Origin: Octopus vulgaris
Lineage: Eukaryota
Reading direction: 5' to 3'
DNA: 64,000 nucleotides
NCBI GenBank assembly: GCA_951406725.2
Contig: OX597814.1
Span: 36,704,001 to 36,768,000, forward strand
This document shows, piece after piece, positions 2,618-63,990 of this stretch (the first letter of the stretch is position 1; the number at the start of each line of letters is the position of its first letter). The position numbers and the translations under genes were made by a program. The notes beneath the pieces are model-generated. The model ran no database searches. It saw only the letters and a list, made by a program, of their open reading frames with translations, and was not told where the DNA came from.

Positions 2618-4139
2618 TATACGCACACGCGCGCGTGCTCATACACACATAGTCACACACACACACACATGCACATGCACACATACACATGCACACGCAC
2701 ACACATATATAAACGAGATTATCTGCATCGGAAAAATGTTTTTCCTTCATTCTCCTTCGACCAGAAGAAATGGATCAGACAGCGTATAACAATCACGGGC
2801 TATTTTGACTGAACTTTTAAACCCTACATTTGGTAAATTGACAATAGTTAAATCGCTGCCCATCATTTCGCCCTGACGTCTAGTTTAACTCTTCTCTCTT
2901 GCTCCATAAGAAGTCAGAGGTCCTTTCTGTTGCGTCTTCTATCCAGCGCTCAGCCGCATTTATCTCTTGTCCTCATATTACAATTGTAATTATTCATCAT
3001 ACTGATCAGGTAGGAAATCTTCTGCAATCAAATTCAACTCCGATGCATTCTGTGCATACGCTCTGTAATCTTGCCAACGTTTATAGTAAGCGGGGAACTT
3101 CCATTGAGAGGCTTCGAATCATTCTACTTCCCAAGGAACAGTAAGCCTGACTTAGGGGTTATCCTTTTTGCCTTCTCCAAAAAACATCTACTTCCGGCTT
3201 CCAGGTTATTTGAGCAGATTTGGAGACCTGTAACTTTTCTCCACTTTTACTTTCGTCGAGTCGCTTATTGCAAACAGCATGGATATTTTGCTATCGTTAA
3301 ATGTTTACGTCTTCCGCGACTGATGTTGTTTATCTCTGACGTTGGAGTTTCTTGTTTCTCTTTTGATCCACAGTGCATCTCCCTTGGATAAGCGCTGTCT
3401 TATCTACCTGAGAATATATACACAACGGTACTACTTTCTTCATAAAGCCTACGCAGCTGTCCCTCTTTTATGCAATATTTATGAAATGCGAGTGTCATCA
3501 GGGAAAAAGTTTAGTATACACAGTCCTATCTATGTAATTTACCTCTTCGGATATACCACTTGATATTTGCACCCCACAGGGATACTAGCCCACAACTTTT
3601 GGTTTTGTGGGTTTTGTCCTTCATTCTGTAGGATGTCCAAAACCACTCTCTTCACAAAGAATTCTCAGTGTCGAAGGTGATTTTAGTTAGCATAGTCAAT
3701 GACTAAAGAACTGGGTTACATATACATATATGCACACACACATACATATATATACACACACAAATGTCTACCAAATCTATTCACGAGGCTTTGGCTCACC
3801 CGAAGCTATAATAGAAGACATATATCGCCTGTTGCATTCAGGCCATAAGGTCAATGTTTCCTCGCGCTCGCCAGTTACCCTCTCGTCCATGCCAGAACAA
3901 AGGCTTTCGTTCGTTTTTTTCGTTGTTCTCTTGTTTATTTTTGATTTCTCGTATTGTAATTTAATTCTCGTTATGTATTTTCGTGTGCATGTATCTTTAA
4001 TTTTGTATTTTTTTCTTGTATGTATTTTTTGTGCAGTTCTTTGTTACGTCCCTTTTTGTGTTACATTTTTCCTGCTCGTTTACCCCTCTACGAGTTTATT
4101 TTATTTTAATTCTCTCGTAGGAAGGCCTAGCTTGACCTT

Positions 4140-4196
4140 ACGTGTTCTGTCTTGCCTTCGAAACACGTGTCTGCTAGCGACAGCTGATGAAGGGGA
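4140..4196 (+). ncRNA. Candidate hammerhead ribozyme with scrambled strand order (family A, copy 1)
   Basis: ACGTGT-T-CTGTC ttg CCTTC-GAAA-CACGT ... GACAG-CTGATGA-AGGGG; stems III (6 bp), I (5 bp) and a weak II can all form; NUH = GUU. Confidence 0.55.
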
Positions 4197-5037
4197 TTTT
4201 TCGTTGTGTAGCACGTCCTGTACTTCGTTTTTCTGCTACACATAACTGTTTTTCCCGTTTTCGTTTTCGTTTCGTCTTGTTCCCCGTCTCTGTCCTTCTG
4301 TTGTAACAAAATATCTTCTCCGTTTTCGTTCTGTTGATTTTTTCGTCTTCTTGTGATGTCCTGTACGTATATATATATTTATATATGCATGTATATATAC
4401 ATGTAGATATCGGTACGTACATATATGTTTGTATGTATGCATATATTTTATTTATTACACTATTGTCTGACAGCGCTTCGCGTCGGGTTCGTTTGAATTT
4501 TCGATTTTTCGAATTCTCACTTTGTTCCGTCCCCTCCTCTTTGTCCATTTTTACAGTTTACTACAATGATGCGAAACTCTCTTCCTTTGCTTTAACTTCC
4601 CCTCTCTCTCTCTCTCTCTCTTGCTCTCTCTACCTCACCCTTCTCTCTAGCCTGTGTCTTCCTCTTTCTGTCTCTCTCTCTCTCTCCTACTTTTCCTCAC
4701 TTTCGTCACTGCTAAACCTTTCCGCCTGTTGCATTCAGGCCATAAGGTCAATGTTTCCTCGCGCTCGCCAGTTACCTATCTCGTCCCAGCCAGAACAAAG
4801 GCCTTCGTTCGTTTTTTTCGTTGTTCTCTTGTTTATTTTTGATTTCTCGTATTGTAATTTAATTCTCGTTATGTATTTTCGTGTGCATGTATCTTTAATT
4901 TTGTATTTTTTTCTTGTATGTATTTTTTGTGCAGTTCTTTGTTACGTCCCTTTTTGTGTTACATTTTTCCTGCTCGTTTACCCCTCTTCGAGTTTATTTT
5001 ATTTTAATTCTCTCGTAGGAAGGCCTAGCTTGACCTT

Positions 5038-5094
5038 ACGTGTTCTGTCTTGCCTTCGAAACACGTGTCTGCTAGCGACAGCTGATGAAGGGGA
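5038..5094 (+). ncRNA. Candidate scrambled hammerhead ribozyme (family A, copy 2)
   Basis: Identical to 4140-4196, offset by 898 bp. Confidence 0.55.
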
Positions 5095-5354
5095 TTTTTC
5101 GTTGTGTAGCACGTCCTGTACTTCGTTTTTCTGCTACACATAACTGTTTTTCCCGTTTTCGTTTTCGTTTCGTCTTGTTCCCCGTCTCTGTCCTTCTGTT
5201 GTAACAAAATGTCTTCTCCGTTTTCGTTCTGTTGATTTTTTCGTCTTCTTGTGATGTCCTGTACGTATATATATATTTATATATGCATGTATATATACAT
5301 GTAGATGTCGGTACGTACATATATGTTTGTATGTATGCATATATTTATTTATTA

Positions 5355-5409
<55 letters not shown>

Positions 5410-9516: not shown

Positions 9517-10862
9517 GTACGTATCAATTGCTTCTCGAATGTATCCAGAATCGCAGTGTGGCTTTAGAAGAAGCAGATCAACTATTGACATGATATTCTC
9601 CATACGCCAACTTCAGAAGTCCAGAGAGCAGAAAATGCCATTATATATGGCCTTCATTGATCTGACAAAGGCCTTTGACTTGGTACGTAGAAAAGGCCTG
9701 TTCATCCTGCTCCGAAAAATCGGATGTCCACCAAAGCTGCTGAGGATCATCAAATCTTTCCATGATAAAGCAATGTTGTATCCTTGCTCCTACATTATTT
9801 GGCATCTTCTCGCTGCTGTTGTCACATGCCTTTGAGACATTAGATGATGGAGTGTTTCTGCACAGTAGAAGTGATTGGAAACTGTTCAATCTCTCGCGTC
9901 TGCCTACCAAGACCAAAATAAGAAGCATCCTGATCAAGGAGATGTTATTTGCTTATAATGCCGCTCTGGTATCACACACAGAAGAAGCCCTACAAAGGCT
10001 CATCAAACGTTTTGAGCAAGCATGTAGCAGCTTTGGCTTATTTATTAGCCTCAAGAAGACCAACATCATGGGTCAGGCTACATCGGACATCCCAAACATA
10101 CATATTGGAGACCACAGACTACAGGAGGTGGAGAAGTTTACCTATCTTGGCTCTACCGTTACCTACAACCTATTCCTTGATGCTGAGCTCAATATACACA
10201 TTGGCAAGGCAGCTGCTGTGATGGCCCAACTCTCCAACAATAAGCTGATCAAGACCACAAAAATGAAGATTTACCAGGCATGTGTACTTAGCACTCTACG
10301 GTATGGAAGTGAGAGTTGGACGCCATACACACGCCATACGACGCCATACGTCGCCTAAATATCTTTCACCTGCGCTGCCTCCGGAAAATCCTTCGCATCA
10401 AATGGCAGAATCATGTCCCCAACAAAGATGTCCTCAAGCAAGCAGGAATATTAAGCATGTTTGCACTCCTCACATAAAGACGTATGAGATGGCTTGGACA
10501 TGTTAGCCGTATGGAATATGGCAGATCCCCAAGAACATACTCAACGGAGAGCTTGCTAGGGGCACTAGGTCTGTGGCAAGACAGTTCTTACGATACAAGG
10601 AAGTTTTCAAAAGGGACAGGAATGCCTGCAACATCAATATTAGCAGTTGCCAGTGACCATGGCGATTGGCGACGTACTGTAAAAGAGGGAACACAAAGGA
10701 GTGACATAGAGGGAGAGGAGAAATGGAAAGACAAGAAAAGACGTCAACAAGAAGTATGACATTACAACCAGCCAGGCAAAGTCTTCGTTGCATTTGCGGC
10801 ACCTGCCAGAGGGAGTGTTTGTCCAGGATATGACTACACAGCCACATCAGGAGATGTATTAG
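9517..10862 (+). mobile_element. 5'-truncated RTE-clade (BovB-like) LINE, reverse-transcriptase pseudogene
   Basis: PESQCGFRRSRSTIDMIF, FIDLTKAFD, KQCCILAPTLF, LFAYNAAL (decayed FADD), FTYLGS, YGSESW, RWLGHVSRM and a C-terminal CxxC..H; frameshifts and an internal deletion. Confidence 0.93.
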
Positions 10863-13337: not shown

Positions 13338-16300
13338 ATGCCACCCAAGAAGAGAAGGACCCTCCTCAGCCCTCGGACGTTCAAGGCATCGGCTGCTAGG
13401 GCTAGAAGGGCACGCGAGACCCACGAGGAAACCGCCTTGCGCCTCTCGCAAAAAGCTTCCCGTTATGCCGCTGCTCAGGCATCTGAAACTACTAGCGAAC
13501 GTTCTACCCGACTTACAAGGGCCGCAGCGTACTGATCTTCCTTCCGCTCGAGGTTGACGAAAGAGCAACAGTCCAGCCAAAACATGCAGGCTTCTTCCTG
13601 TGCTTCCATCCGCAGAGCTCGCGAGAACCCCGAACAAAGGGCCATTCGGAATGCAGCTAACGCCGCTAGCGCCTCCAGGACACAATCTGTCGAAACCTCA
13701 CAGCAGAGGAAAACTCACCAAACTGCTAACGCCGCAAACACAGCCATGGCCCGATCTGTCGAAACACCTCAACAGAAGAGAGCTCGCCAAGCTGCTGACG
13801 CCGCAAACACAGCCATGGCCCGATCTGCCGAAGCACCTCAACAGAGGAGAGCTCGCCAAGCTGCTAACGCCGCAAACATAGCCATGGCTCGATCTGCCGA
13901 AACTCCAGACCAACGAACTATTCGGACATCCAGAGATGCCATTAACACTGCTTCTGTTAGGGCTTCAGAGGGTGCTGAGGCGAGAGCTGAAAGGCTTTCA
14001 AGATATGCCACTGCTACCGCTGTCGCACGCGCATCTCAATTTGCTGAGCCACGGCGCACTCGACTTGAGAGTATCAACAAACGTTGGGATATCATTCGTG
14101 GTGTACGTACCCTTGCCCCCGCTTTCTGGTCGTCACTAGCATTCAACTATGACGCCACAATCAACTTCTCCTTGCGTGACGACATCAAGATAGGGTCAAT
14201 GACAATTGTATGCCAGTTTTGCAAAGCCAAGAAATGGCCCGGAGAGCCACCTGGTTTGTGCTGCTCTGGTGGCAAAGTGGACCTGCCACCCCTACGGGAA
14301 CCACCTCAACCACTGAAGGATCTCGCGGCGGGTTTAACCCCCGAATCGTCACAATTCCTTGAAATCATTCGAAAGTACAACTGCTCATTCCAAATGACTT
14401 CTTTCGGGGCCAAAATTCCTCCTAGAGAAGGCTGGATGCCTACTTACAAAGTGCAGGGACAGGTCTATCATCTTATTGGGTCACTTCTGCCAGACGAAAT
14501 TCAGCAGTCTTCTTTCCTCCAAATCTACTTCATTGCCGACTACAACCAGCAGGTTGATGTACGCCTTGGAATAATACCGGGTACATGCTATGTTCCCCGC
14601 AAAGATGTTCTTCTCCGTCTCCAAACCATGCTTCATGATATCAACAGCTACGTCTGCAGCTTCAGGTATGCCTTGGACAGTGCTCCATCTCCAAACTTCA
14701 CCGTTGTCATTGATGCTGATAAACGGCCCCACGGGGAGCACGAACGCCGTTCAACGCACCTGCGTGCAATGAAATTGCCGCAGTCATACACGGAGAGCAA
14801 CACAACAGCCGTGACATAATCATCTCCCCCCGTGGTAACAGCCTACGCAGGATCAGCGGGACTCACAGATCTTATGACGCGCTTCAGTATCCATTGCTTT
14901 TCCCTTATGGGGAAAACGGCTACCACTTCGGAATTCCTTTACGGCAGCCCTCCAATCAAACTACTGCGGAATCAAAGACGGTTTCCTGCAGGGCGTTCTA
15001 CTCATACCCGTTCATGGTCAGGGAGGGTGAGTTCAACTTATTGCCCCGTTGTCGTCAGCTATTCAACCAGTTCGCCGTCGACATGGCCGCCAAAATGGAA
15101 TCGGAAAGGCTGCTATACATTAAACTTAATCAGACCAAACTTCGCTCCGACTCCTACATTCATCTCCGTGACGGCTTGCAACAAGAAACTGACCCTCGCA
15201 ACATCGGCAAGCCATGCATTCTACCCTCCACCTTCACGGGAGGACCGCGATATATGCGTGAAAGGACCCAAGACGCCTTGACCTACGTGCGCATTTACGG
15301 CCGGCCGGACCTCTTTATCACCTACACGTGCCATCCCAACTGCGACGAAATCTCTCGCGAACTCCTCCCGGGTCAGTCTCACACCCATCGACACGACACC
15401 GTTGCTAGGGTTTTCCGTCTGAATTTGGGCAAAATGATGGATTTGATAGTTAAGGGTCAGATTTTCGAGCATGTCAGGTGCCACATGCTTTCGGTCGAGT
15501 GGCAAAAGCGGGGCTTCCCACATGCTCACATATTAATTTGGCTAACTAATAAAATCGAGACTAATGACATTGACAAATTTATTTCCGCCGAGATTCCTGA
15601 CCCCGATGAGGACCCCGAACTGTACGAAATTGTCCACACTACCATGGTACACGGCCCTGTGGACCAATTTACGCCAACACACCATGCTGCAAAAACGGAT
15701 TAGCCTGCTCAAAGGGATTCTCTAAACAGTTCACTTTGGAGACTCAAACAGGCGGCGATGGGTATCCGCTGTACAAACGAAGGAGTCCAGCCAATAGAGG
15801 CTGCACGATTACGGTTGGGCGACATCAAGTGGACAACAGCTACATTGTCCCCTACTGTCCTCTCCTGTCGAAGATATTCAAAGCCCACGTCAACGTTAAG
15901 TTCTGCAGCTCCATCAGGTCAATACAATATGTCTGCAAACATATCAATAAGGGCAGCGATGCTGCCATGTTCAGCATCCAGAGGGCCACCAGTCGCGACG
16001 AAGTGTCCAACTACTTGGCAGGCCGGTACCTCAGCAGCAACGAAGCGTTTTGGCGCATTTACGGCTTCTCGCTCCATCAGAGACACCCGGGTGTGGTGCA
16101 GCTTGCTGTACACTTGGGAAATGGACAGCGGATTTACTTCACAGAGCAAAGTGCTGCGCAGGTAGCCACCAACCCTAAAGGCACAACGTTGACCGATTTC
16201 TTCAAATTATGCCAACGTGATGACTTCGCTCGAACGCTTTTGTACCCACAGGTTTCCATCGTACTTCGTGTGGTCTAACAACACCTGGGTTCGACGGAAA

Positions 16301-18310
16301 TCCGGCAAAAACGTCGAAGGCTTCCCAGGCGTCAAGTTTGACTCCTGCCTGGGTCGAGTTTACAACATCCCGCCAAACCAGCAAGAATGCTTCTACCTCC
16401 GTCTCCTTCTACATGAGGTCACTGGTCCAACAGGTTTCGGCAATATACGTACCGTCAATGGGGTTCTGTGCGACACCTTCAGGGAAGCATGTATGAAACT
16501 TGGCCTTCTAGAGGATGACTCCCAGTGGGACGCCACTATGGCAGAGGACGCTATACTGCAAACGCCTTCGGCCCTACGTCATGTTTTCGCAATCCTTCTT
16601 CAAAAATGTCAGCTTAGTGACCCACTAAGTCTCTGGATGAAATACAGGGATGACATGTCGCAGTACTTCTTACGTAGGGCTCAGCAACACTGCCCTTCCG
16701 CCTAGATCACGTTCACCAACTTCATTTACAATTTTGCGCTTATTCAACTCGAAGACGCTCTCATCGATATGGGTGGCTCTGCTTTAACAGAGTACGGCCT
16801 TCCACCACCCACACGTGAACACGCCAATGTTATATCTGCTGAATTGTTATACGAAACTTCCTACTGCATTGAGGAACTGCACCAGTACGTCCAAAATAAT
16901 GAACCACGACTGTTTCCAGACCAGCGCATAGCCTACAACACCATCGTAGACTGTGTCAGACAGCGACGTGGGGGGATTTACTTCCTTGACGCACCTGGCG
17001 GCACTGGCAAAACCTTCGTCACGAAACTAATTCTGGCAGGTCAGACGCAAGACGGACATTGCCCTGGCTGTAATTTCCTCTGGTATTCGCGGCCACGTTG
17101 CTTCCGGGTGGCAGAACCGCCCACTCTGCTTTCAGACTCCCGCTCGATCTGGCAAAGTCCGAGTCACCTCTCTGCAACATCGCCAAGAACTCAGAACAGG
17201 CCGACATTCTGCGCAGATGCAAACTCATCGTATGTGATGAGTGCACTATGGCACACAAAGGCGCCCTTGAGGCACTGGACAGGTCCCTGCAAGACATCAG
17301 AGAATCTACGGCCCCCATGGAAGATTGACTTTACTTCTTTCAGGAGACTTCAGGCAGACTCTACCTGTTATTCCAAAAGGAACCCGTGCCGATGCCGTGC
17401 GCGCGTGCCTTAAGTCGTCAGCTCTTTGGGAACATGTGCGGCCCTTGCACCTCCCAACTAACATGCGCGCGCAGTTGATTGGTGACAGCGGATCAGCTGC
17501 ATTCTCCAGGGATCTTTTATCGCTCGGTGAAAATGGGATGCCGGCTGATGCGGATGGCTGCGTTCAATTGGACTCACTTTGCACCACTGTCGACACCCCT
17601 GCTAGCCTCCGGGACGCTGTCTTCCACGACCTACAAAACAACTTACGCGATGTAAAATGGCTGGCAGGCAGAGCTATTCTCGCATCCCAAAATACAACCG
17701 TCAACTCCATCAATATCCAGCTACTTGAAGCTATTCCTGGTGATGTCCACGTCTACAAATCTATAGGTAGGACAGCAGACCCCGCCGAGCTTGCCGATTA
17801 TCCTGTTGAATTCCTGAATTCACTTGAACCGCCATGCCTGCCGCCACACATCCTAAAGTTAAAAGTCGGTGCGCCCATTATGCTCATCAGGAATTTGGTT
17901 CCACCTAAACAGTGCAACGGCACACGTCTGGTTGTGAAACATTTGGCACCACATTTAATAACGGCCACAATACTTACCGGTTGTGGGAAGGGAGAGGACG
18001 TCTTCATTCCACGAATGCACCTTCAACCGTCGGGCGCTGACCTACCAATCCACTTCAGGCGTTCTCAGTTTCCTGTTAAAGTCTGCTTCGCAATGTCCAT
18101 CAATAAATCCCAACGCTACAAGTCGCTGGGTTACATTTGGGCGAACAGTGCTTCGCCCACGGTCAACTCTACGTGGGCTATTCACGCGTTGGGAGGCGCA
18201 ATGATGTTTTCATGTTTTCGCCCAAAGGGACAGCTAGGAACATCGTATACACAGAAGTATTCGAGTCCAGAGAAGACACTGCAACCTACACATGCGCCTT
18301 CGTTCCCTAG
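13338..18310 (+). pseudogene. Helitron Rep/Pif1-like helicase (RepHel), disabled by 2 in-frame stops and at least 6 frameshifts
   Basis: CxxC..CC zinc region, PDLFITYTCHP, VEWQKRGFPHAHIL (HUH), YVCKHINKG, Walker A DAPGGTGKT, VCDEC, SGDFRQTLPV, CNGTR, QFPVKVCFAMSINKSQ, HGQLYVGYSRV; stops at 13533 and 16703. Confidence 0.95.
13416..14105 (+). repeat. Ten in-frame 69-bp/23-aa repeats (STPR-like) in the RepHel N-terminus
   Basis: ETHEETALRL.., ETTSERSTRL.., ENPEQRAIRN.., ETPQQKRARQ.., EAPQQRRARQ.., ETPDQRTIRT.. at exact 23-residue spacing. Confidence 0.85.
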
Positions 18311-20273
18311 AAGGAAAGGACTAGATTGGGATTAGTCGTTGCCTACTAGGGGCTCTTACATACCCGGGCAACGCCGAGCTATGCTGCTAGTATATATATA
18401 AGACAGCTCAGTCTCGTCGGTAATTCGTCACATGAATTCTTTCGACTACGCACAGACTTTATTCTATGTTACGCCTCTTGTTCATATTCTGTTAAATCAT
18501 TAGCCGTTTTTATTTGATTGCACACTAAGAGAAGCATCAAACAGCTTTTCAATATGTCTGTTGAAGGCAAGACAGTGAAATATTTACCTATTACCGACCA
18601 CTCAAATCATACCTAGTAATTATCAGTTATTTTTCGCCAACTAAAAAAGAAACCTTTGTGTAGCAATATAAAGCTGATTTCCATTTTCAAAATCAAGTGC
18701 AATTTTGTCAACCTTTATTTAGAATGAGATCTACACCCTTGAGGGGACTTTCGAACATTGAGTTTCTCTGGGATATGAAGCTGGAGCAGGTGCCACGTTT
18801 GAAAGACTAAGAAGTGTTTAATTAGTTTCTTCTTTAACTTATCGTGACGCACAGAATTCATCGAGCCGGTAATAAGGCTACAGGCTGCCTATAAGATATC
18901 CGATAGGAGCGAACTGGCAATATATAGAATCGTGTAACTTCAGATGTAATCCCAGTTTGGCAGGAGCAGAGCCATAATCTGGAGAACATAGAGAGCCGTT
19001 CATTGGTCCAAACAGCGAGGAATTTTGAAGGTTAATGGGTTATGTAAACCCCACTTTTGGATATGAAGATTATATGTCATATCCATAATAAGTATGTCAA
19101 CAATATCTAGTCTGTAAAGATGCCGAGTATTCATCGGTGGGTTTTGTGTTAGCATGTGTCTAGCCGTAAGTACATGTTACTGACAGCGCCCAACATGGCA
19201 GGAAAGGGTATCAAGTATTGCCACTGAAGCTGCAGGACGATGTTCGTCTGTTATTGATATATTTGTGTTTCTAAACAGAAATACGTCCATAAAACGTATT
19301 ATCTCGCGACGAATATCACAGTTAATTTGCTTTGTTTTCGATGCTTCTGCTTAAAGTATGATACACATCTCTCTTTCCCTCTCTCTCTTTGTCTCTCTCT
19401 ACACACACTTGCGTATGCACACACCCATGCATGCGTGTATGTATGTGTGTACGTATATATGTATATATGTATGCATGTATGTATGTATGTATGTATGTAT
19501 GTATGTATGTATGTATGTGTCCTTAGTAAAGTATGTTAGTCCTGATGGATCTGAACAAGAGATAAGAAAGTACTCTACAGAGAGAGGGCAGCAGCAGTAA
19601 GTGGTTAAGTAAGAAATTTACAATAAAATATTTACCTACAATCTCGTTTAAATTTACGATGAATGTTTATGAGCAAAATAATATGATATATAGCAAATTT
19701 TAGAATAGCTAAACATTTTTTAGGAGACTTGTTAATATGTCTGTGTGAAACATTTTCATGAGAATATTTAATGTGCTATAATATATAGGTCATGAAAATA
19801 GATAATGACCTGTAACAAACTTTGTTCAAGTCGATAACTGTGTCGGTATAAAACATTATTTATGAATACATTATCCTAGTCATCTCATGAACATGTTTTT
19901 GTGTACGATGTGTACGAGAGTTGTGTTATAATTCTGAAAGCTTGTAATTTGACGTGGCATAGATTCGTTATATGCAGCTTCAATTAAAAGCTGAATAACC
20001 GCATATGTTTTATTACTGAGGGAACTGAAATCCACTTTGAGACCTACGGAAGTGCTAAAATATCTGATCCCAATTGCGTACGACAGGATTACGTACTTTG
20101 GTTCACAAAAATTTCAATATCTGGCTTGGGGTAATACATCGAAAAGTCCTTTGCTTTTTCTATAAAAAATCTATCTACGAAACGACTGAACTAATGAAGA
20201 TACACACTGAATCAGTTTTAAAATATTGCGTTTCAATGCACTGAGATACTGACGACAATGAGATGCGCTGCCT

Positions 20274-21083: not shown

Positions 21084-21343
21084 TAACGTGGAGTAGATAA
21101 AACAGTGGACAACTGATGAAGGAAATGTTCTTTATGTTGCCTGTCTCGTTTCTCTATTTGTTTCTTTCGTTGTTCGAAAAAGAGTTCGTTTTCTATGCTT
21201 TTGTTGTTTATGTTCTCGTTTCTCATTTTGTTCACGTTTTTGTTGACGTCCTGTCCCCATATATGCATGTATATATACATATATATGTAGGTATGTACAT
21301 ATATGTCTGTATACATACATATAGTTTTATATTTAATTTATTA

Positions 21344-21348
<5 letters not shown>
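21084..21348 (+). mobile_element. Penelope pLTR-like repeat family B, 5'-truncated copy with GGACAA-CTGATGA
   Basis: Homologous to the reverse complement of about 27895-28147; tail resembles the family A tail; ends in (TA)n. Confidence 0.55.
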
Positions 21349-27195: not shown

Positions 27196-27686
27196 ATATA
27201 TATGTAGGTTTGTATGTATGTATGTATGTATGTATGTATGTATGTATGTATGTAGGTAGGTATAGATGAATAGATAGATAAGCGGAGTGAAAATGCGAAG
27301 TAGTGATGTGTATAAATACAAACTTGTTACCAGTTCTAATATGCTTGAGACAAAATCGAACTCGTGTGAAAGCAACTCACTGTATTGTATCATGGAGAAA
27401 TCTTCGTTTGTAGACAAGTAGATGCAAATACACCGCGTCAGCTCCCGGTTCCACCGAACCAGATGTATGATGCATGCATATCGGAGTGATTATCTGCTCT
27501 TCAGTCACTCAGAGGGTAAAGAAGACACTGCAAACTGACACACCGAAAGTGTCCTTCTCATAATATTTCCATTACTGTTCTATGACCAGTTGCGCTGTTC
27601 GGCAGCTCACCGTAAATATATATATATATATATATATATATACGTATATCAATTAGAAATTTTATTTAATTTATACTCATACACAC

Positions 27687-27807
27687 ATGCAACATAAAGA
27701 ACATTCCGTTCATTAGTTATCCCTTGTTTTATCTCCTCCGCGTTTCGAAGGTAAGGCCAAACACGACTTCGTTCAAACAGTCCTTCCCACAAAGCAAATT
27801 AAATAAA

Positions 27808-27884
<77 letters not shown>

Positions 27885-28220
27885 ATATATTATATAATAA
27901 TATAAATAAAATATAAATATATGCATATATACATACATATATGTGCATACCTACTTCATATATATGTACATATACATACATATATGGGTACAGGACATTA
28001 AAAAAGTAGACAGAATGAGAAATGAAAACATAAACAAAAACAGAAAACGACCCTTTTTTCGAACAACGAAACGAAACAGAGAAACGAGACATGGAACATA
28101 AAGAACATTCCCTTCATCACTTGTCCCCTGTTTTATCTACCCCGCGTCCCGAAGGTAAGGACAATACGCGACTTCGTTAAAGCGGTCCTTCCCGCAAAGC
28201 AAATTAAATAAAATTTGGGA
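27687..28220 (-). mobile_element. Two copies of pLTR-like family B (about 27687-27812 and 27895-28220) separated by (TA)n
   Basis: Mutual similarity and similarity to 21084-21348; degenerate scrambled hammerhead motifs at 27704-27766 and 28109-28171. Confidence 0.6.
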
Positions 28221-29094
28221 TTTTTTGCGGAAGGTGAAATTGGTATCAAAAACAGGACAGTGAGACTAAGACAGTAAAAACAAAGAGTAAAGGCTGTTAA
28301 GCCAAGACGATGTGAAGATAATGAACGCTGGAAAACGAGCTTTGAGAATAGACGAGCATTAAGGAATTACGAAATCACTTGCGATCTGTCTATGTTTGGA
28401 TGCTGTAGGTAGCTTGCTCCCCTTGTTAGTCTTAAGATAAGTATTTTCTTGGAGCTATGAATTGTTTTAACTCTTATTTCAAGCAATACAGGGGTTAACT
28501 AGTACCCTTCGTGACTTTATTGACGTCTATATTTCTGCCTTTCGGTTGTAAATTGCGGATAAACCACGCTTCTTGCCTAACCGAAAATGTACTCTAGAAA
28601 CGGCTGTCGAATGGATTTCCTCTAATAACGGGACTTAATCGTGAATTCTTAATCCTTAGTTATAAATTTTTGAAATGTTCCAGTAAAGTAGTTATTTGCT
28701 CTCTGGACTGTCTTAGCTTTTTATCTTATATAATTTATATATGTTGTATCTTTTTGTATAGGTCGTTTATCATTTTATTTTCAATCTCTATTTCTACTTT
28801 CTTTTGCACTCACCATATTTATAACTCGCATATTTTTAGGTTCTTTTAAGTTATATTTTTATTGATATATTTATGCTATGTTTTTATATATAGAGATTTG
28901 TATTGATATGTATTAATATAGATTAATATATATGTATTCAAAAAATATTTCTGAAGCTTTACGTTTACGTGCTTTCCGTTTCGGAATTCCCTGATTGACC
29001 TAAACTCTGTTTCTGAGTTTACCTCTTCAATAATCGTTCGTCTCGGACTAATTCTGAGCACTTCATCAGTCACAGCCCATATATCTCGAAAGAA

Positions 29095-32529: not shown

Positions 32530-35162
32530 AGATGATGAACGAGGATTATTCGCCTGCTGAAAAGAACAGCCGGTCATCCGCAAAGCAGAACAAACAAGAC
32601 AGTGACAGCATTACCAGCAAAACAGCAGTAGCAGCTGCAACCACAACAACAACAACAACACCAACAACAACAGAGACGACAATAATGTTTCAGCTGCATC
32701 CAACACAACCTTCACGATCACAGGAACAAAAGAAATCAATAACAACAAAAATCAACATCAGTAAGAACACTACTACCTCCACCACCACCACCGTCACCAG
32801 TAGCAACAGGAAACCTACAACCACCAACACCAACATAATTGACAAAAACGTCAACAAAGGAAACTAGTCAAACACACCAATTCTCGGTGACTTAGCGCAA
32901 GCGACAAGGCAAGTAAGCGAAGATAGTTTTATCAACGAAAATAAATTGAAAAGTGCAAAATGTATGTTGGAAAAAATTTGGGAGAAATGTGACACTAAAT
33001 ATTCATAGATCGATCCAGCAAGAAACGAATTTACGAAGTGTTTTATGTAAGACAATTGAAGAAAAGTGTAGAAGAGTAGAACATGCAACAAAGTGTAGAA
33101 GAGTAGAACATCAAATTGAAAAGTGTTTACGACCAATTCGGGAGAGCAAAACTTATATAGCCAAGGGTAAAAAATATGTGACTGTCGAAATGAGGTTTGT
33201 TTCTGAAAAGAATGCGGAAAAATTATTCAAAAGCCACCCTAACGGGTGATGAATTCATTCTCATCCCCATCTACCTTAGCCGAAAGGTATTCAAAATGAG
33301 AATATTAAATATATCACTAGAAATAAACATCTGCTGGCTGGTGGCTGTTACTCTCTACGCATTGAAGAGAAAAACTACTCTTCTGCAGAAATAGAAAACG
33401 CAGAAGCAGAACTGGTTAGAGCAGTGCATGGAATTATAAGTATAGGCAGATTCTCTAAACCGTCGAGGCCATTTCAGATTCCATACGCCTACCAGATAGC
33501 CAAAGTTTCACGTAGCTATTGAGTGCAGAAGGCCGAGATGTTACCAGTTTGGGGACACAAATAACCTCAAAGATTTCTGCCCACAACAAAAGAGAGAAGG
33601 GAGCGCCCCGTTTGTGTCTACACATCCACCACCACCACCACCACCACCACCATCAAGACCAACACAACCAGGACCACCACAACCACCACTACCACCACGA
33701 CCACCAAAACAGCAACAACACCACCAACATCATCAACAACACCAACATCAACAACATCATCAACAACAACATCAACATCAACAACAACAACAACAACAAC
33801 AGCAACAACACCAACATCATCAACAACAACAACACCAACATCAACAACATCATCAACAACAACAACATCAACATCAACATCAACAGCAACAATAACAGCA
33901 ACAATAACAGCAACAACACCAGCAGAGGCAGGTGATCACGATAGCCGCCCAAAAAAAAGCAGTAATAGTAGCAGCAACAATAATCATAGCAACACCAAGA
34001 ACAGTAGCAGGAACTACAGCAACAACAAAATTGAAAGCAACAGCAACAAGCGGAGTAGATAACTCACCGACATCTATGGCTTCTACATACAAGCGAGATG
34101 TGCCATGTGGTGGTGGTAAAATGTCAGAAGGTCAAAGAAAAGAAAAAGAAAAACATTCAAGATAAAAATCTGACACGTATGACCACAGGGGGTAAGACGT
34201 CTTTTAGAACAAATACACAGACACTGATCCCATCAGCTGCTACACCAGTACCGTCAGCAATAACATCATCTCCATCACGACCATCACCACCACAAATGTC
34301 AAAGACACCATCATGACAAGCCCAACACAATTCACACATACGAATCTTATATCGCACATCCTAAAACCAACAAAATTCAAACATTATTAACTACTCAGCA
34401 ATAAACACGCACAATAAAGAACAGATGGGACACACATATAACCATACAGACATCACACACAGCGATTTTATCAAACCGAAAAAAAACACCGCAACACACA
34501 TAGAAGCCACCCTAACATCACAAAATACATACAACACCATAACAACTAAAATAACCTGAAGGAGTAGAAGTTTTCAGGACAAATATCAATAAAAGAGTAT
34601 ATACAGTATATAACTGCTTGTCAAAACTTCCACATATGGCCATGGGAAAGAATCATCCAACCCCACCTTGCTTGCAAAATGAAAGTAACATTCCCGGGTC
34701 TATTCATTATTCTGACATAGCCTTACTTAAGATAGGCAGTATAAATCCACGATGCCTGGGGTCGTCTTTGAAAGAATTCCATCAAATCACCACATATAGA
34801 TATAGTGGCTATCAGTAAAACTAGACTCTCTGACCGACAAGCGATCATTCCCATTTTCGGTGGATAAAATATATATATTTATCTCCATGTCAACCGGGTA
34901 CGCGAGGTGGAGCCGCTGGACGGAGGACCTGTCGAATTGCTCGTGGTCTGGTTTGGTCCAGATCTCCAGGTGGAGAAGAACTGGGACGATGTGACAAGCA
35001 AGGTAGCTAATCTCAACCAGAAATGAACTGAGAGAAAGCTATCCTTGAAAGTTTAGGCAGGGGTGGCGAATGCTTACGTCGCCTCCGTCATATATTACTT
35101 CCTGGCCGTTCTGATCTGTCCCAGATTACGTCTGACTAAACTGGTGCGCGTACTCTTCTGCT
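32530..35162 (+). mobile_element. Decayed Tx1/L1-type LINE: ORF1 with zinc knuckle, APE endonuclease start, deletion, post-RT region
   Basis: RRPRCYQFGDTNNLKDFCP (about 33527-33583); LKIGSINPRCL (about 34725); GPVELLVVWFGPDLQVEKNWDDVTSKV..RKLSLK..ANAYVASVIYY (34925-35100). Confidence 0.65.
33626..33925. repeat. (CCA/CAA/CAT)n cryptic trinucleotide tract inside the LINE relic
   Basis: Direct; it gives the poly-P/Q/H and poly-N ORFs. Confidence 0.9.
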
Positions 35163-36878
35163 TTTGTTTTGCTCGTATTTTGTTGCTATTGGCACCAGTT
35201 TTCTTTGATTCTGAGTTAGATATTCTGTAATCCTATGGTAGTCATTTTATAGTAGATTTCCAGTTGTATAATGCCTCTTCCTCCTTCAATTCGTTGTATA
35301 TATAGCCTTTCTAGGTTAAATGTTGAGTGGTGCATCATAAATTCTGCATCATTTTTCTTGTTCTGTAGTCTATTTTGGTTAGTTCATTTAGTGTCCAATT
35401 AAGAATATTGTAATTATAACTTACAACTGGGACAACGAGAGTATTGATACATAATAACTTGTTTTTTACATTGTTTTAAGTATTAATCAAACTCGTCTAT
35501 AGTATTCTTTCCTTATCTTCTCTTTCATGTGTGTGTGTTGTACCGTGTCTTGTTTATTGATTCCTAAGTAATTATATATCTGGCTTTGGTTTAATTTTGT
35601 TATTTCATCTTCTTTATTTCATTTTCTTTATCTACTCTTGACTAGTTTTCGCTCTTTCAAGGTTGCTTTGGCACATTTTCCTACGCCGAATTTCATGTTT
35701 ATTTCTTAAGTAAATCCATGCACTGTGGAGGCGCAATGGCCCAATGTTTAGGGCAGCGGACTCGCGGTCATAGGATCGCGGTTTCGATACCCAGACCGGG
35801 CGTTGTGAGTGTTTATTGAACGAAACACCTAAAAGCTCCACGCAGCTCCGGCAGGGGATGGTGGTGGTCCCTGCTATACTCTTTCACCACAACTTTCTCT
35901 CACTCTTACTTCCTGTTTCTGTTGTACCTGTATTTCAAAGGGCCGGCCTTGTCACTCTCTGTGTCACGCTGAATATCCCCGAGAACTACGTTAAGGGTAC
36001 ACGTGTCTGTGGAGTGCTCAGCCACTTACACGTTAATTTCACGAGCAGGCTGTTCCGTTGATTCGGATCAACCGGAACCCTCGTCGTCGTAACCGACGGA
36101 GCGCTTCCATTCCATAAATCCATGCACTCTATGTAGTAATGTTTTCTGTAGTTTATGATTTGCAGTATAGTTTCAGATTACCCATATACAAGAGATGGTT
36201 GTGGTTTTACCGTAGTAGTTGTATCCACATGCAGTTCTGTTTAACATGTCAGTTAAAAGCCTCAGTATCAGGTGGAAAAGAATTGCAGAGATCTATCTTC
36301 TTCGAATACTCCTGTTCTAATGGCGATGGCCTGAGTTTTTATGAGTGCCTCTTTTGTCTGGAGCTGCATCATTGTTTGTCATTTATTCATGGCATGTTTT
36401 ATATATTCTATTATTGCTGGTGCTACCTTGTTAATGGCTAGTGTTTCTAGGGTCCACACTAGAAAAACCTTTCGATAATTGATCCAAACCATGTTTAGAC
36501 GCTTCTTTGTTATTTCGGCTGTCTTCAGTTTTGGCTTACTTGATCAATAACTTATCTTTACAGCCATGTGAGCCGCCTTTGCGGCATCCCTTCTGCTCCT
36601 CTGGAAACAAGTTGTTTTCTTTCAGTTTTCTTTTCATTCTCTGCAATATTTTTGTAGTTAAGGCTTTGTAAGGTGTAGCGAGACATGTTATGGGTCTGTA
36701 ATTTTGTGGGTTTGTCGTTTCAGTGGATTTGGGAATTAAGATGATTAAGATGATTTTTCCCAAAGTGTTGGCACAGCTTCCAGTGTGTATAACTGTCACG
36801 TCTTTGGATATATTCTTTCTTAACCAGAACTGTGTATCCAGAAAGAATGTGGTTTATGGTTTCTTCCCCCATCACCTC
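35163..36878 (-). mobile_element. R4/Dong-like LINE relic (RT region), deleted, rearranged and interrupted by a SINE
   Basis: LIPKSTETTNPQNYRPITCL, LFPEEQKGCRKG; colinear with parts of 62300-63000. Confidence 0.85.
35725..36114 (+). mobile_element. SINE family 3 with 14-bp target-site duplication
   Basis: TSD taaatccatgcact at 35711-35724 and 36115-36128; tRNA-like head shared with 63670. Confidence 0.9.
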
Positions 36879-36879
36879 A

Positions 36880-36936
<57 letters not shown>

Positions 36937-36939
36937 TAT

Positions 36940-38527
36940 TTCTATAACGTGCTTTCACTGCACTACGGACTGCAGTTCTGTGCGCCCTGGGTATTTGCCG
37001 TGGTTTGTTGTGAGGCTGTGTTTTGTTGTGTTACTGTATTGTTGTGTTACTGTATTGCAAATGTTTTACGTAGAATGTGTGGGGTGTCTGGTAGTGCTAT
37101 TTTCTGTATATTACACATATTTGTTAGTCCTGGTGTTTTTGTTATGTATTTGTCTGAATATTTTTTGTATCATGCCTAATGCACCTACTATGATAGGAAT
37201 TGTTTCTGTTTTTAGATTCCACATTCGAGTTACCTCTATTTCTAGGGCTTTGTATTTTGAAGGTTTCTCCATTTCTTTTTGAGACACGCATTTTTCTTGT
37301 TTTCCTGTCTATTTTGATCAGTTCATTTAGTGTCCAGTTAAGGATATTGTAGCTGTAACTTATAACTGCGACGGCTAGTGTTGATACCTATTATCTTGTT
37401 TTTCGCATTGAGCCCTGTTTTGAGTATTAATGTATTTCGTCTGTTGTATTCCGTTTTTTATTTTCTCTTTCATTATTGTGTGTGTTGTGTCGTATCTAGT
37501 TCATTCATTCCTAAATATTTGTATCTGGCTTTTGTCAAATTCTAGTTTTCCTCTTTTCAAGGTTGCTTTGGCATACTTTTCTAAGCTAAATTTCATATTT
37601 ATTTCTTTGATAAATCCATGTACTGTCTGTAGTAATATTACCAGCTGTTTATCATTTGTAGTGTGCAGTTTTAGGTCATACATATATAAGAGGTGGCTGA
37701 TTGTTTTGTCGTAACAGTTGTATCCGCATGTCAAAAAAGATATCAATGCCAAGCAGAAAAGGAATGTTCCTCTTCTAATAGCTATGGTTTCTATGAGTCC
37801 CTCTTTTGTCTGGAGCTGTAGCACTGTCTGCCATTTATTCATGGATTGTGTTATATATTTTATGATTATTGGCGCTACTTTGTTCATGGCTAGTGTTTCT
37901 AGGATCCATGTGTGGAGAATACTATCAAAAGCCTTTTGGTAATCGATCCAGGCTATACTTAGACCCTTCTTTATGCGGCTGATCCCTTGCAGCGTTCATT
38001 CTGCTCTTCTGGAAACAGTTTGTTTTCTTCAGATGCTTGCTCATTCCCTGCGATATTATTGCTGTAAAGGCTTTGTAAATTGTAAGGAAACAACTTATTG
38101 GTCTGTAATTTTGTGAGTTTGTGGCTTCAGTGGATTTGGGAATTAGGATGGTTTTCCCTTCCGTTAACCACTCAGGCATTATCTCTGGCTCTGCTAGTAT
38201 GTCATTAAATATCTCAACCAGATTTTATGTGTGCCTGTTAGGTATTTTAACCAGAACTTAGGATCTTATCGTGCTCAGGTGCCTTCCAGTAGCTTAGTTT
38301 TTGCAGTGCCTGGGTGACTTCTTCAGTTGTTATAGGGGTCCAAAGTTGTTCCTTCACCGACCTTCTAACATTCTTCCACTTGTTCTGCTGTTGGTGCTGC
38401 ATTGATGTCTATTTTATTGTTGCCAAGTTCTAGGTAGAATCTTCTCATAAACGTTGACGTTTCTCATACCGACGTATTCTTTGTGCTGTGGCGAGGATAT
38501 CTTGCTTTAGCCGTTCCATTACCTCAG
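36940..38527 (-). mobile_element. R4/Dong-like LINE copy with internal deletion, 3' end in (TTA)n
   Basis: MPEWLTEGKTILIPKS..NYRPISC, ISHLLYMYDLKL; 3' region matches about 61070-61400. Confidence 0.88.
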
Positions 38528-55372: not shown

Positions 55373-56132
55373 ATGACTGAAAGTAAAGGGTGAGAGATTT
55401 TTAATTGCAGCACAAAGCCTTCCCACCAGAAATCCCTAAAAACAAGCATGTAATGAAATAAAATACAAGTAACTGCAGAATATGTGGAGATAGGGAAGAA
55501 GCGATAAATAATATTGTCGCTGTCTGCCCAGTCCTGGCTAAGGAGGAATATATTTACAGACATGAGAGAGGTAAGACCTATATACACTGGAGTCTATGCC
55601 AACTCTATGGTATCACAGCAGATAAAAAAAGATGGTATAGGCACACGCCAGAAAAGGTCATAGAAAATTAGAAAGCAACCATACTCTGGGATTGCCAATA
55701 CACATAGATATAGAAATTAAGGGAAATGCGCCGGGCATAGTTGCCATATATCATCGAGGAAAAATACTTTCTAATCGACATATCAATACCAACAGATTAC
55801 AATGTTTCTCTAAAAGAAACAGAAACTTTCAAAATACAAAGACCTGGAAATAGAGGTAACCCGAATGTGGATCCTGAAAACAGGTGCAATTACTATCATA
55901 GTAGGTGCATTAGGTATGATAAAAAATATTCAGACAAATACGTAACAAAAACACCAGGACTTACATAACATACAGAAAACAGCACTAATTGGCACCGCGC
56001 ACAGTCTAAATAAAACACTTTCAAAACAGTGAAAATAAGAGCTCTACACCGAAGCGCAGCATGTACCCAAGGCACATAAATCAGCGCTCGTTAGTGTAGT
56101 GAATACATGTGTTAAAATTAAAACGACTGAAT
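55373..56132 (+). mobile_element. R4/Dong-like LINE 3' portion (CCHC + REL domain) adjoining (TAA)n
   Basis: Reverse-complement homology to about 61070-61850; preceded by (TAA/TGA)n at 55232-55362. Confidence 0.88.
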
Positions 56133-56221
56133 AATAAAAATAATATTAATAACATCAGACTATTCATATCGTCATTGGGATTGAAATTACCTAGGAAGAG
56201 TCTACCGGTGTTACTTTCCTG

Positions 56222-60894: not shown

Positions 60895-63038
<2,144 letters not shown>

Positions 63039-63055
63039 TATTATTATTATTATTA

Positions 63056-63101
<46 letters not shown>

Positions 63102-63340
63102 TTTTTTTTCTTCTTTCAAATTTACTTCCATTTCTTGCCGAGTGTCTTCCCGACTCCTAGGGCAAAGAAACTCATAGTATACATTGGTAGGCCATTAAAC
63201 CAAACTCAGTAGTTCGTTCATTTTTTTTTTTTTTTTAAAGTTAAAATACATGAGCAGCAACAGTTCTCACATCGACAATGCTCTTCTCAATACGTGTGAT
63301 GTACCAGTTAAGACAATCTTTTGCACTTCTTGCAGGGATG

Positions 63341-63384
<44 letters not shown>

Positions 63385-63669
63385 AAGCTACTACATGTTT
63401 TTTTAAGTAGGAGGGTTATTTACAAGCATAAGAAATCTCTTCAGATATCAAGAAAATTTCGTAGAACTCTTCCCTCCTCCTCCTCTTACACCCACTTCTT
63501 CATTTTCTTCTTCTTTTTCTTCTTCTTTTTCTTCTTCTTCTTCTTCTTCTTCTTCTTCTTCTTCTTCTTCTTCTACTTCTTCTTCTTCTTCTTCTTCTTA
63601 TTATTATTATTATTATATTTATTATTATTATTAGTAGTAGTATTAGTAGTAGTAGTAGTAGTAGCAGCA

Positions 63670-63990
63670 GTGGAGGCGCAATGGCCCAGTAGTTAGGGCA
63701 GCGGACTCACGGTCTGAAGATCGTGGTTTAGATTCCCAGACCGGGCGTTGTGTGTGTTTATTGAGCGAAAAAAACCTCAAAAGCTTTACGAGGCTTCGGC
63801 AGAGGGTGGTGGCGATTCCTGTTGTACTTTTACGCCCCAACTTTCTCTCACACTTTCTTCCTGTTTCTTGAGTAACGCTGCGATGAACTGGCCTCCCGTC
63901 CAACTGGGGGGAACACATACGTCACAGAAACCGGGAAACCGGACCCATGAGCCTGACTAGGCTTGAAAAGGGCGCATAAATAAATAAATA
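63670..63990 (+). mobile_element. SINE with family-3 head and a different tail, ending in (TAAA)n
   Basis: Head matches 35725-35918; flanked by (TAG)n on both sides. Confidence 0.8.

Follow-up and report, generated by a model that had tools for sequence, protein, structure and literature searches.

Repeat copies in the window and their families in the genome

The window, the 64,000-nucleotide stretch of the Octopus vulgaris contig OX597814.1 analysed here as a whole, contains three copies of a repeat family, family B, and two head-to-tail units of a related family A (Table 1). An earlier note had described the three family B copies as mutated or truncated forms of a scrambled hammerhead ribozyme. 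Reading the letters at each site bore out both the positions and the damage, with core changes in copies 1 and 2 and a truncated 5' end in copy 3. The copy at 28109-28171 (-) reads CGCGT-A-TTGTCC-TTA-CCTTC-GGGA-CGCG...GGACAA-GTGATGA-AGGGA, with A13, A14, and C3 altered; its GAAGG lies on the upstream side, outside the limits previously drawn, and the cut would, by analogy with hammerheads, be placed between 28165 and 28164. GAAA is present at 27704-27766 (-), where the CUGAUGA block is CTAATGA and the stems are damaged. The copy at 21084-21124 (+) begins at about A14, in the zone where family B copies start most often, and its CTGATGA is intact. The six-helix motifs of family A at 4083-4195 and 4981-5093 (+) have intact cores.

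Table 1. Positions of family A and B features in the window
Feature	Position	Strand	Remarks
Family B copy 1, 5'-truncated part of a ~760-nt non-coding tandem unit, (TA)n at end	27891..28352	-	Pairwise alignment with 29 other copies
Copy 1, helix X 5' strand	28234-28231	-	Part of the 28192..28234 block
Copy 1, hairpin P0	28230-28224 with 28198-28192	-	Abuts G10.1; folding prediction for this copy likewise gives P0
Copy 1, stem II 5' strand GAAGG, from G10.1	28187..28191	-	Partner CCTTC at 28155-28151
Copy 1, helix P4 5' strand	28178..28185	-	Partner is the "long linker" TAAAACAG at 28135-28128
Copy 1, block S	28159..28170	-	Stem III 5' strand 28170-28166, position 17 at 28165, stem I 5' strand 28164-28159
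Copy 1, block G: stem II 3' strand, GAAA (here GGGA: A13, A14 altered), stem III 3' strand	28143..28155	-	
Copy 1, stem I 3' strand, CUGAUGA (here GTGATGA), then AGGG as 3' strand of helix X rather than of stem II	28110..28126	-	
Family B copy 2, short, degraded (CTAATGA; stems I and III damaged), adjoins (TA)n	27685..27811	-	Model match 79.5 bits
Family B copy 3, 5'-truncated at ~A14, just 3' of A13	21085..21345	+	
Family A, two units head-to-tail, period 898 nt	3826..5360	+	

At 27657-27672 (+), beside (TA)n, the start of copy 2 recurs in inverted form over 16 nt, which fits the inversions typical of such elements. The window also contains a broken Helitron-like element at 13536-18335 (+), with Helitron_like_N (E 1.5e-49) and with the domains PIF1 and Pif1_2B, which lie in different frames. 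Several fragments of a non-LTR retroelement, possibly R4/Dong-like, are located at 35162-38153, 55375-56152, and 61014-63868, mostly on the minus strand and interrupted by trinucleotide arrays; one of them matches RVT_1 at 62626-63156 (E 3e-11). A reverse-transcriptase fragment at 9744-10358 (+) falls below the cut-off (RVT_1, E 2e-4). An Rfam search of the window (E <=1) identified no hammerhead among the best 150 of 166 matches, only microsatellite-driven microRNA matches.

The source genome of 2.8 Gb is rich in microsatellites, and CTGATGA alone occurs in the window about as often as expected by chance (10 vs 9.7). The ordered pair CCTTCGAAA-N15-40-CTGATGAAGG gave 927+942 genome matches (1869) as compared with 0+0 for the reversed control, and the copies in the window are thus not chance occurrences. 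The related families that this pattern covers number at least five (A, B, C, D, and E). For family N, 501 matches were obtained (control 0), and for the family F pattern 381 (control 27). A further family (L063, L076, L448, and others) has the same fold with AUC at the cut, CUGAAGA in the core, and GGCTG/CAGCC as stem II. Families A and B share their flanks and are homologous, and head-to-tail units are seen in both, with a period of 898-905 nt in family A and 756-763 nt in family B.

The units of both families are non-coding and 5'-truncated, often with inverted 5' pieces, and end in (TA)n; family B, for which the first search yielded 3867 candidates (40 scored), has in addition an optional tail of ~39 nt. 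The non-coding tandem unit, the truncation, the inversions, the microsatellite target, and the tail are features of a non-autonomous Penelope-like element or retrozyme. The longest family B insertions (L426, L427, L428, and L429) extend back about one unit and end in or just past the previous ribozyme; these lengths would fit unit-length templates. No reading frame was found attached to family B or to families A-E in the surroundings of the copies.

A predicted hammerhead core with a stem II strand from upstream

The bases of the hammerhead core (C3-U4-G5-A6-N7-G8-A9, G12-A13-A14, A15.1-U16.1, and H17) are the majority bases in 11 of 11 family consensuses. The earlier note had staked its reading on GAAA and CUGAUGA being kept in a genome-wide family B consensus, and in the consensus built here every core base is the commonest one, including A13, which is yet often altered. 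The cleavage triplet had been given as GUA, a minority variant that is carried by the window copy. Position 17 of family B is C in 79 copies, A in 15, T in 5, and G in 1 (hand count of the first 100 of 106 rows), and C in 21/24 copies of a sample chosen without regard to this site, so the cut is predicted to follow GUC. The crossover, said to be kept at 3 nt, measures 1-6 nt by script and 2-4 nt by eye in families A-E. Compensation relative to family A was confirmed for stem III (U-A to C-G) and stem I (C-G to U-A), with one two-sided change in each. This covariation agrees with the claim of a selected structure, but it is not the independent support that had been assumed, because families A and B are homologous members of one lineage and differ in this way at two pairs only.

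The 5' strand of stem II had been identified as the AGGG after CUGAUGA; instead it comes from a GAAGG further upstream. Families A-E keep this GAAGG ~20 nt 5' of stem III, where it is a perfect partner for CCUUC and provides the usual G10.1-C11.1 pair, and with it stems I, II, and III meet at the core. Stem II is near-invariant within families A-E (two-sided count 0), and the case for its covariation rests on a sub-lineage of family B and on comparison across families. In the sub-lineage, GAAGG/CCTTC has changed to GAACG/CG(T/C)TC in 5/75 copies (positions 10.4 and 11.4, G-C to C-G), probably by a single inherited event; 2/75 copies are altered upstream only, 1/75 downstream only, and 67/75 at neither site. 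Across families, in a comparison anchored by hand, the upstream strand covaries as GACACC/GGTGTC, GGCCG/CGGCC, and GGGCAG/CTGCCC, with further swaps to GGCCT/AGGCC, GGCTG/CAGCC, and GTGCC/GGCAC. The whole stem is exchanged in families N and F and in two families found with a descriptor. That descriptor, which has no stem II term, gave 141 distinct matches in 1.48 Mb of fetched DNA and none in shuffled DNA. At least four Watson-Crick pairs are formed upstream in 116 of the matches and downstream in 3; a single superfamily accounts for 99 of the 141, and pairing was tried in 18 registers upstream vs 6 downstream.

It is highly improbable that the repeats instead encode an ordinary type-SGC hammerhead, in which the CUGAUGA block would be intact and the AGGG after A9 would pair with CCUU. 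This pairing can be drawn in families A-E (4 pairs, 83.3% of cells paired), and the type-SGC ribozyme of Eckert et al. (PMC10085705) has such a layout with a 3-nt crossover. However, it requires an extra base and a G-U pair, and its duplex energy in families A-E is -2.6 to -3.3 kcal/mol, as against -5.7 to -8.0 kcal/mol when the partner is the one upstream. In families N, F1, and F3, the bases after A9 do not pair stably with the strand that precedes GAAA, and these bases differ between subfamilies in which CCTTC and GAAGG are constant. No two-sided change was seen for AGGG/CCUU, which is broken without compensation in the family B sub-lineage, where AGGGA is unaltered in 4/5 of the double-changed copies. 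With the 5' strand of stem II supplied from upstream, there is a break in the backbone between A9 and G10.1. In viral contigs with the same core pattern, 0/80 tested loci (80 of the 121 listed) form stems I and III.

The linker had been thought to diverge completely. It pairs with an upstream strand in 11/11 family consensuses, weakly so in family C, to form helix P4, which consists of the long linker and the strand after GAAGG (CTGTTTTA/TAAAACAG in family B and CTAGC/GCTAG in family A). P4 has ten pairs in family D, with only 3 found in family C, and it bridges stems I and II at their distal ends. A hairpin, P0, ends immediately 5' of G10.1, and the bases after A9 pair with those 5' of P0 as helix X. 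The order of strands is Xa-P0-IIa-P4a-IIIa-[cut]-Ia-IIb-GAA-IIIb-P4b-Ib-CUGAUGA-Xb, and the modelled junction would be five-way (I, X, P0, II, and III). The core stems cross, whereas types I-III as defined in Rfam require that they do not.

In an alignment of 21 copies from families A-E, 93.5% of 649 cells are paired under the six-helix model, as compared with 38-48% in slid controls. Two-sided changes were found in 9/31 pairs (P0 4, stem I 2, stem III 1, P4 1, X 1, stem II 0), which was reached in 5/500 shuffles; the rows were picked as nearest to their own family consensus, related rows can beat shuffles without structure, and the P4 columns of family B are out of register by one. With the family B sub-lineage and the cross-family stem II included, two-sided changes are present in all six helices. 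Helix X is the weakest (81.9% paired), and by eye it is partially paired in families N and F1, where the script missed it. Nested folding of family B is not unusually stable (z -0.64 and -0.34), and the nested-fold z-scores of seven sequences are mixed (-3.25 to +0.75); a fold with crossing stems lies beyond nested folding. A local hairpin after A9 had been considered as a switch, an idea that was abandoned after helix X was recognised. Taken together, the sequences support a scrambled hammerhead under selection for structure, and do so more strongly than the evidence open to the earlier note. The order and the core of the earlier proposal stand, but with six helices, another partner for stem II, and a cut after GUC.

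The helices could be real while the active form is a dimer, made up of a pair of tandem units or of a pair of molecules, as is the case for minimal Penelope hammerheads. Units of 756-905 nt do occur head-to-tail, and dimeric cleavage is described for Penelope hammerheads (PMC4209133). Against a dimer, which we regard as very unlikely, all six helices can be drawn within one unit with gaps of 0-2 nt at the joints. The loop between stem III and P4 in families N, F1, and F3, read by eye, is presumably kink-turn-like and would supply the needed bend within a monomer.

5' ends of the copies and changes at A13

The 5' ends of genomic copies were mapped in the first 90 of 641 copies of families A, D, and E that were anchored downstream of the ribozyme. 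Nine of these 90 start at most 2 nt from the predicted cut, where 0.96 were expected (P about 2e-6), and this is the fullest of the 5-nt windows scanned. Seventeen of the 90 start between -2 and +11 (2.4 expected), including one at +9 that is an internal deletion, and none starts from -3 to -14. Family B, for which the first 90 of 241 copies were used and a few "ends" are internal deletions, has a broad step only and no sharp edge. Here, a start no more than 2 nt from the cut is seen in 2/90 copies (1.44 expected), and starts are in excess at +11 to +28. Copies are truncated at a rate of 0.011 per base downstream and 0.0035 per base upstream; the best break is at 0, and one at +11 fits nearly as well. 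The seven family B copies that start at the cut were too few to compare for core quality. Since many sister-family copies begin at the predicted cut, the split-core ribozyme likely cuts in the animal, and we infer that the RNA folds and cleaves as drawn.

The fold might also be without catalysis, a signal or a relic such as a binding site for reverse transcriptase, at which 5' ends accumulate because the enzyme stalls. The accumulation of family B ends at +11 to +28 over a stable hairpin that only this family has (-6.2 kcal/mol) is in line with this, as is the spread of many family B copies with an altered A13. Against it stand the core bases, all of which are in the majority in the 11 consensuses. 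Nor would stalling be expected to produce the sharp edge of families A, D, and E at the predicted cut, where, with every downstream partner strand already copied, an open fold would be expected. We consider a non-catalytic fold unlikely and retain the self-cutting hammerhead as the preferred reading.

A13 is altered in 17/49 family B copies spanning the site (6 T, 3 G, 2 C, and 6 gaps), and substitutions there (11/43) exceed the 5.4% seen at other adenines (P 1e-5). The corresponding base is altered in 1/63 copies of families A, D, and E. In a second sample, chosen on the upstream body, about 6/21 family B copies are altered but none of those from families D (0/14), A (0/17), and N (0/9), and among near-perfect family B copies 60/100 are altered. 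On a tree with weak support, the changes fall in scattered places (15 on 39 rows vs 17.6 when shuffled). Descent of the variants from single lineages was rejected as the sole cause on these counts, at low support and with starred branches forcing one or two changes per class. No other core base of family B is enriched in changes except G12, where 9/12 are of the CpG type. Selection for any dead ribozyme would be expected to affect several core bases.

The lesion at A13 is recurrent, and it most likely reflects either a modified base met by reverse transcriptase or selection of uncut RNA. N1-methyladenosine (m1A) leaves marks of misreading and of stopping one base 3' in reverse transcription (PMC4787781), and skipping is reported as a further mark. 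TRMT6/61A methylates GUUCRA in stem-loops (10.1101/202747). The context of A13, CUUCGA, is one base off this motif, and a stable local hairpin surrounds it in family B only (-6.2 vs -0.2 to -3.4 kcal/mol). Placed in UUCG-A-AAC, A13 would resemble A58 of the tRNA T-loop and might attract the host tRNA methyltransferase, and the genomic copies of family B would then retain the signature of m1A in ancient reverse transcription, namely stops, skips, and misreads. Against this reading, CUUCGA is common to the other families, the family B hairpin is not a 7-nt T-loop, and only 3/90 ends lie exactly at A14. RNA modification is a tentative explanation of the hot spot, enzyme error driven by RNA structure is equally tentative, and selection of uncut RNA is only slightly less likely.

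Relation to Naiad elements and other hammerheads

Of 30 loci found with a fragment of a Naiad reading frame, eight have the GACACC-type motif of family N at 949-1383 nt downstream, and a ninth carries the motif of another family. A single copy of another family at L473:3030 (+), with stem II GTGCC/GGCAC and, by eye, helix X AATTCT/AGAATT, lies 1358 nt downstream of a Naiad fragment. Remains of reverse transcriptase precede family N only, with RVT_1 below the cut-off (E 2e-4). The 3' end of family N agrees by eye with the Naiad_Ovul consensus of Craig 2021, and at least three more published Naiad ends, among the matches listed, show by eye the same order with an upstream stem II of their own. 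The same split-core fold is found at the end of Naiad retroelements, downstream of their reading frames. Craig et al. 2021 (PMC8557442) reported no canonical hammerhead in Naiads and marked Naiad_Ovul as "HHR_half_core", a mark that corresponds to the split-core fold, which is itself not described in the part of that paper available. Naiads and family B both target (TA)n, are truncated at the 5' end, occur as tandem and as inverted pieces, and may carry a tail of 30-40 nt. Unlike Naiads, family B has no reading frame, and a frame with an N-terminal GIY-YIG and a C-terminal reverse transcriptase, by which Naiads are recognised, was found neither in family B nor in families A-E.

A young Penelope-like family (L141:1745-4087 and L142) has intact frames of 781 residues with reverse transcriptase plus GIY-YIG at the C-terminus, and an upstream open frame. 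Elements of this type were considered as the coding partner and set aside, as a scan of 20 regions with C-terminal-endonuclease elements, found by a GIY-YIG search and including these two, gave no permuted hammerhead.

Among known ribozymes, type SGC (Eckert et al. 2023, PMC10085705; HRIMA-1 and variants) is the closest. It shares the S-G-C order, the short crossover between stems I and II, and the core bases, and its "I" helix connects stems I and II at their distal ends, as P4 would do. However, its CUGAnGA is contiguous with the stem II strand, whereas in the octopus fold block C is interrupted, the 5' end holds that strand together with one half of the joining helix, and two extra helices occupy the break. 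Type SGC cleaves at 0.007-0.13 per minute and, as far as the available text goes, is derived from metatranscriptomes and from none of the genomes of known organisms, in contrast to the thousands of copies in this animal genome. The six-permutation scheme assumes that CUGAnGA is inseparable from its stem II strand, and by its sequence the split-core wiring lies beyond those six permutations. The fold resembles a working hammerhead as predicted, but it is neither one of types I-III nor type SGC as defined.

In non-LTR retrozymes and Penelope pLTR hammerheads (10.64898/2026.07.22.740005, PMC4209133), the units are likewise short, non-coding, and arranged in tandem, with a single hammerhead in each, and they are thought to depend on Penelope-like elements. 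Positions 9 and 10.1 are often separated by an extra base in them already. The fold described for them is canonical or minimal, unlike the split core, and the available text of 10.64898/2026.07.22.740005 does not name a permuted form and has 0 mentions of SGC or pseudoknot. No earlier description of the split-core wiring was found in the literature covered, mainly open-access papers and the body text of bioRxiv preprints.

We consider it likely that the window copies are decayed, non-coding Penelope-like insertions, whose RNA is predicted to form a split-core hammerhead that likely cut itself after GUC. In this model the 5' strand of stem II would be supplied from upstream with A9 not joined to G10.1, helix X and P0 would close the gap, and P4 would hold stems I and II together at their distal ends. 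The insertions may be mobilised by a Naiad-type or other retroelement protein. The ribozyme may serve to cut multimeric transcripts to unit length, and the 3' product of the cut would sometimes be copied into the genome. That this seventh wiring, with its break between A9 and G10.1 and its five-way junction, is the missing ribozyme of Naiads and cuts in vivo is, in our view, likely. The combined proposal, in which this holds and A13 of family B is in addition marked by the host tRNA methyltransferase, silencing the ribozyme, is rather unlikely.

New in this study are the test of stem II within a family, the corrected cleavage site of family B, the 5'-end test on families A, D, and E and on family B, and the A13 hot spot. 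The predicted constructs of ~120 nt are of a size that can be assayed directly. The wiring breaks the rule used for listing hammerhead permutations and would explain why descriptor searches gave only "half cores" in Naiads. If the A13 hot spot is a trace of modification, RNA modification and the silencing of a ribozyme would be readable from genomic retrocopies. Standard ribozyme searches miss thousands of copies of this fold in a single animal genome.
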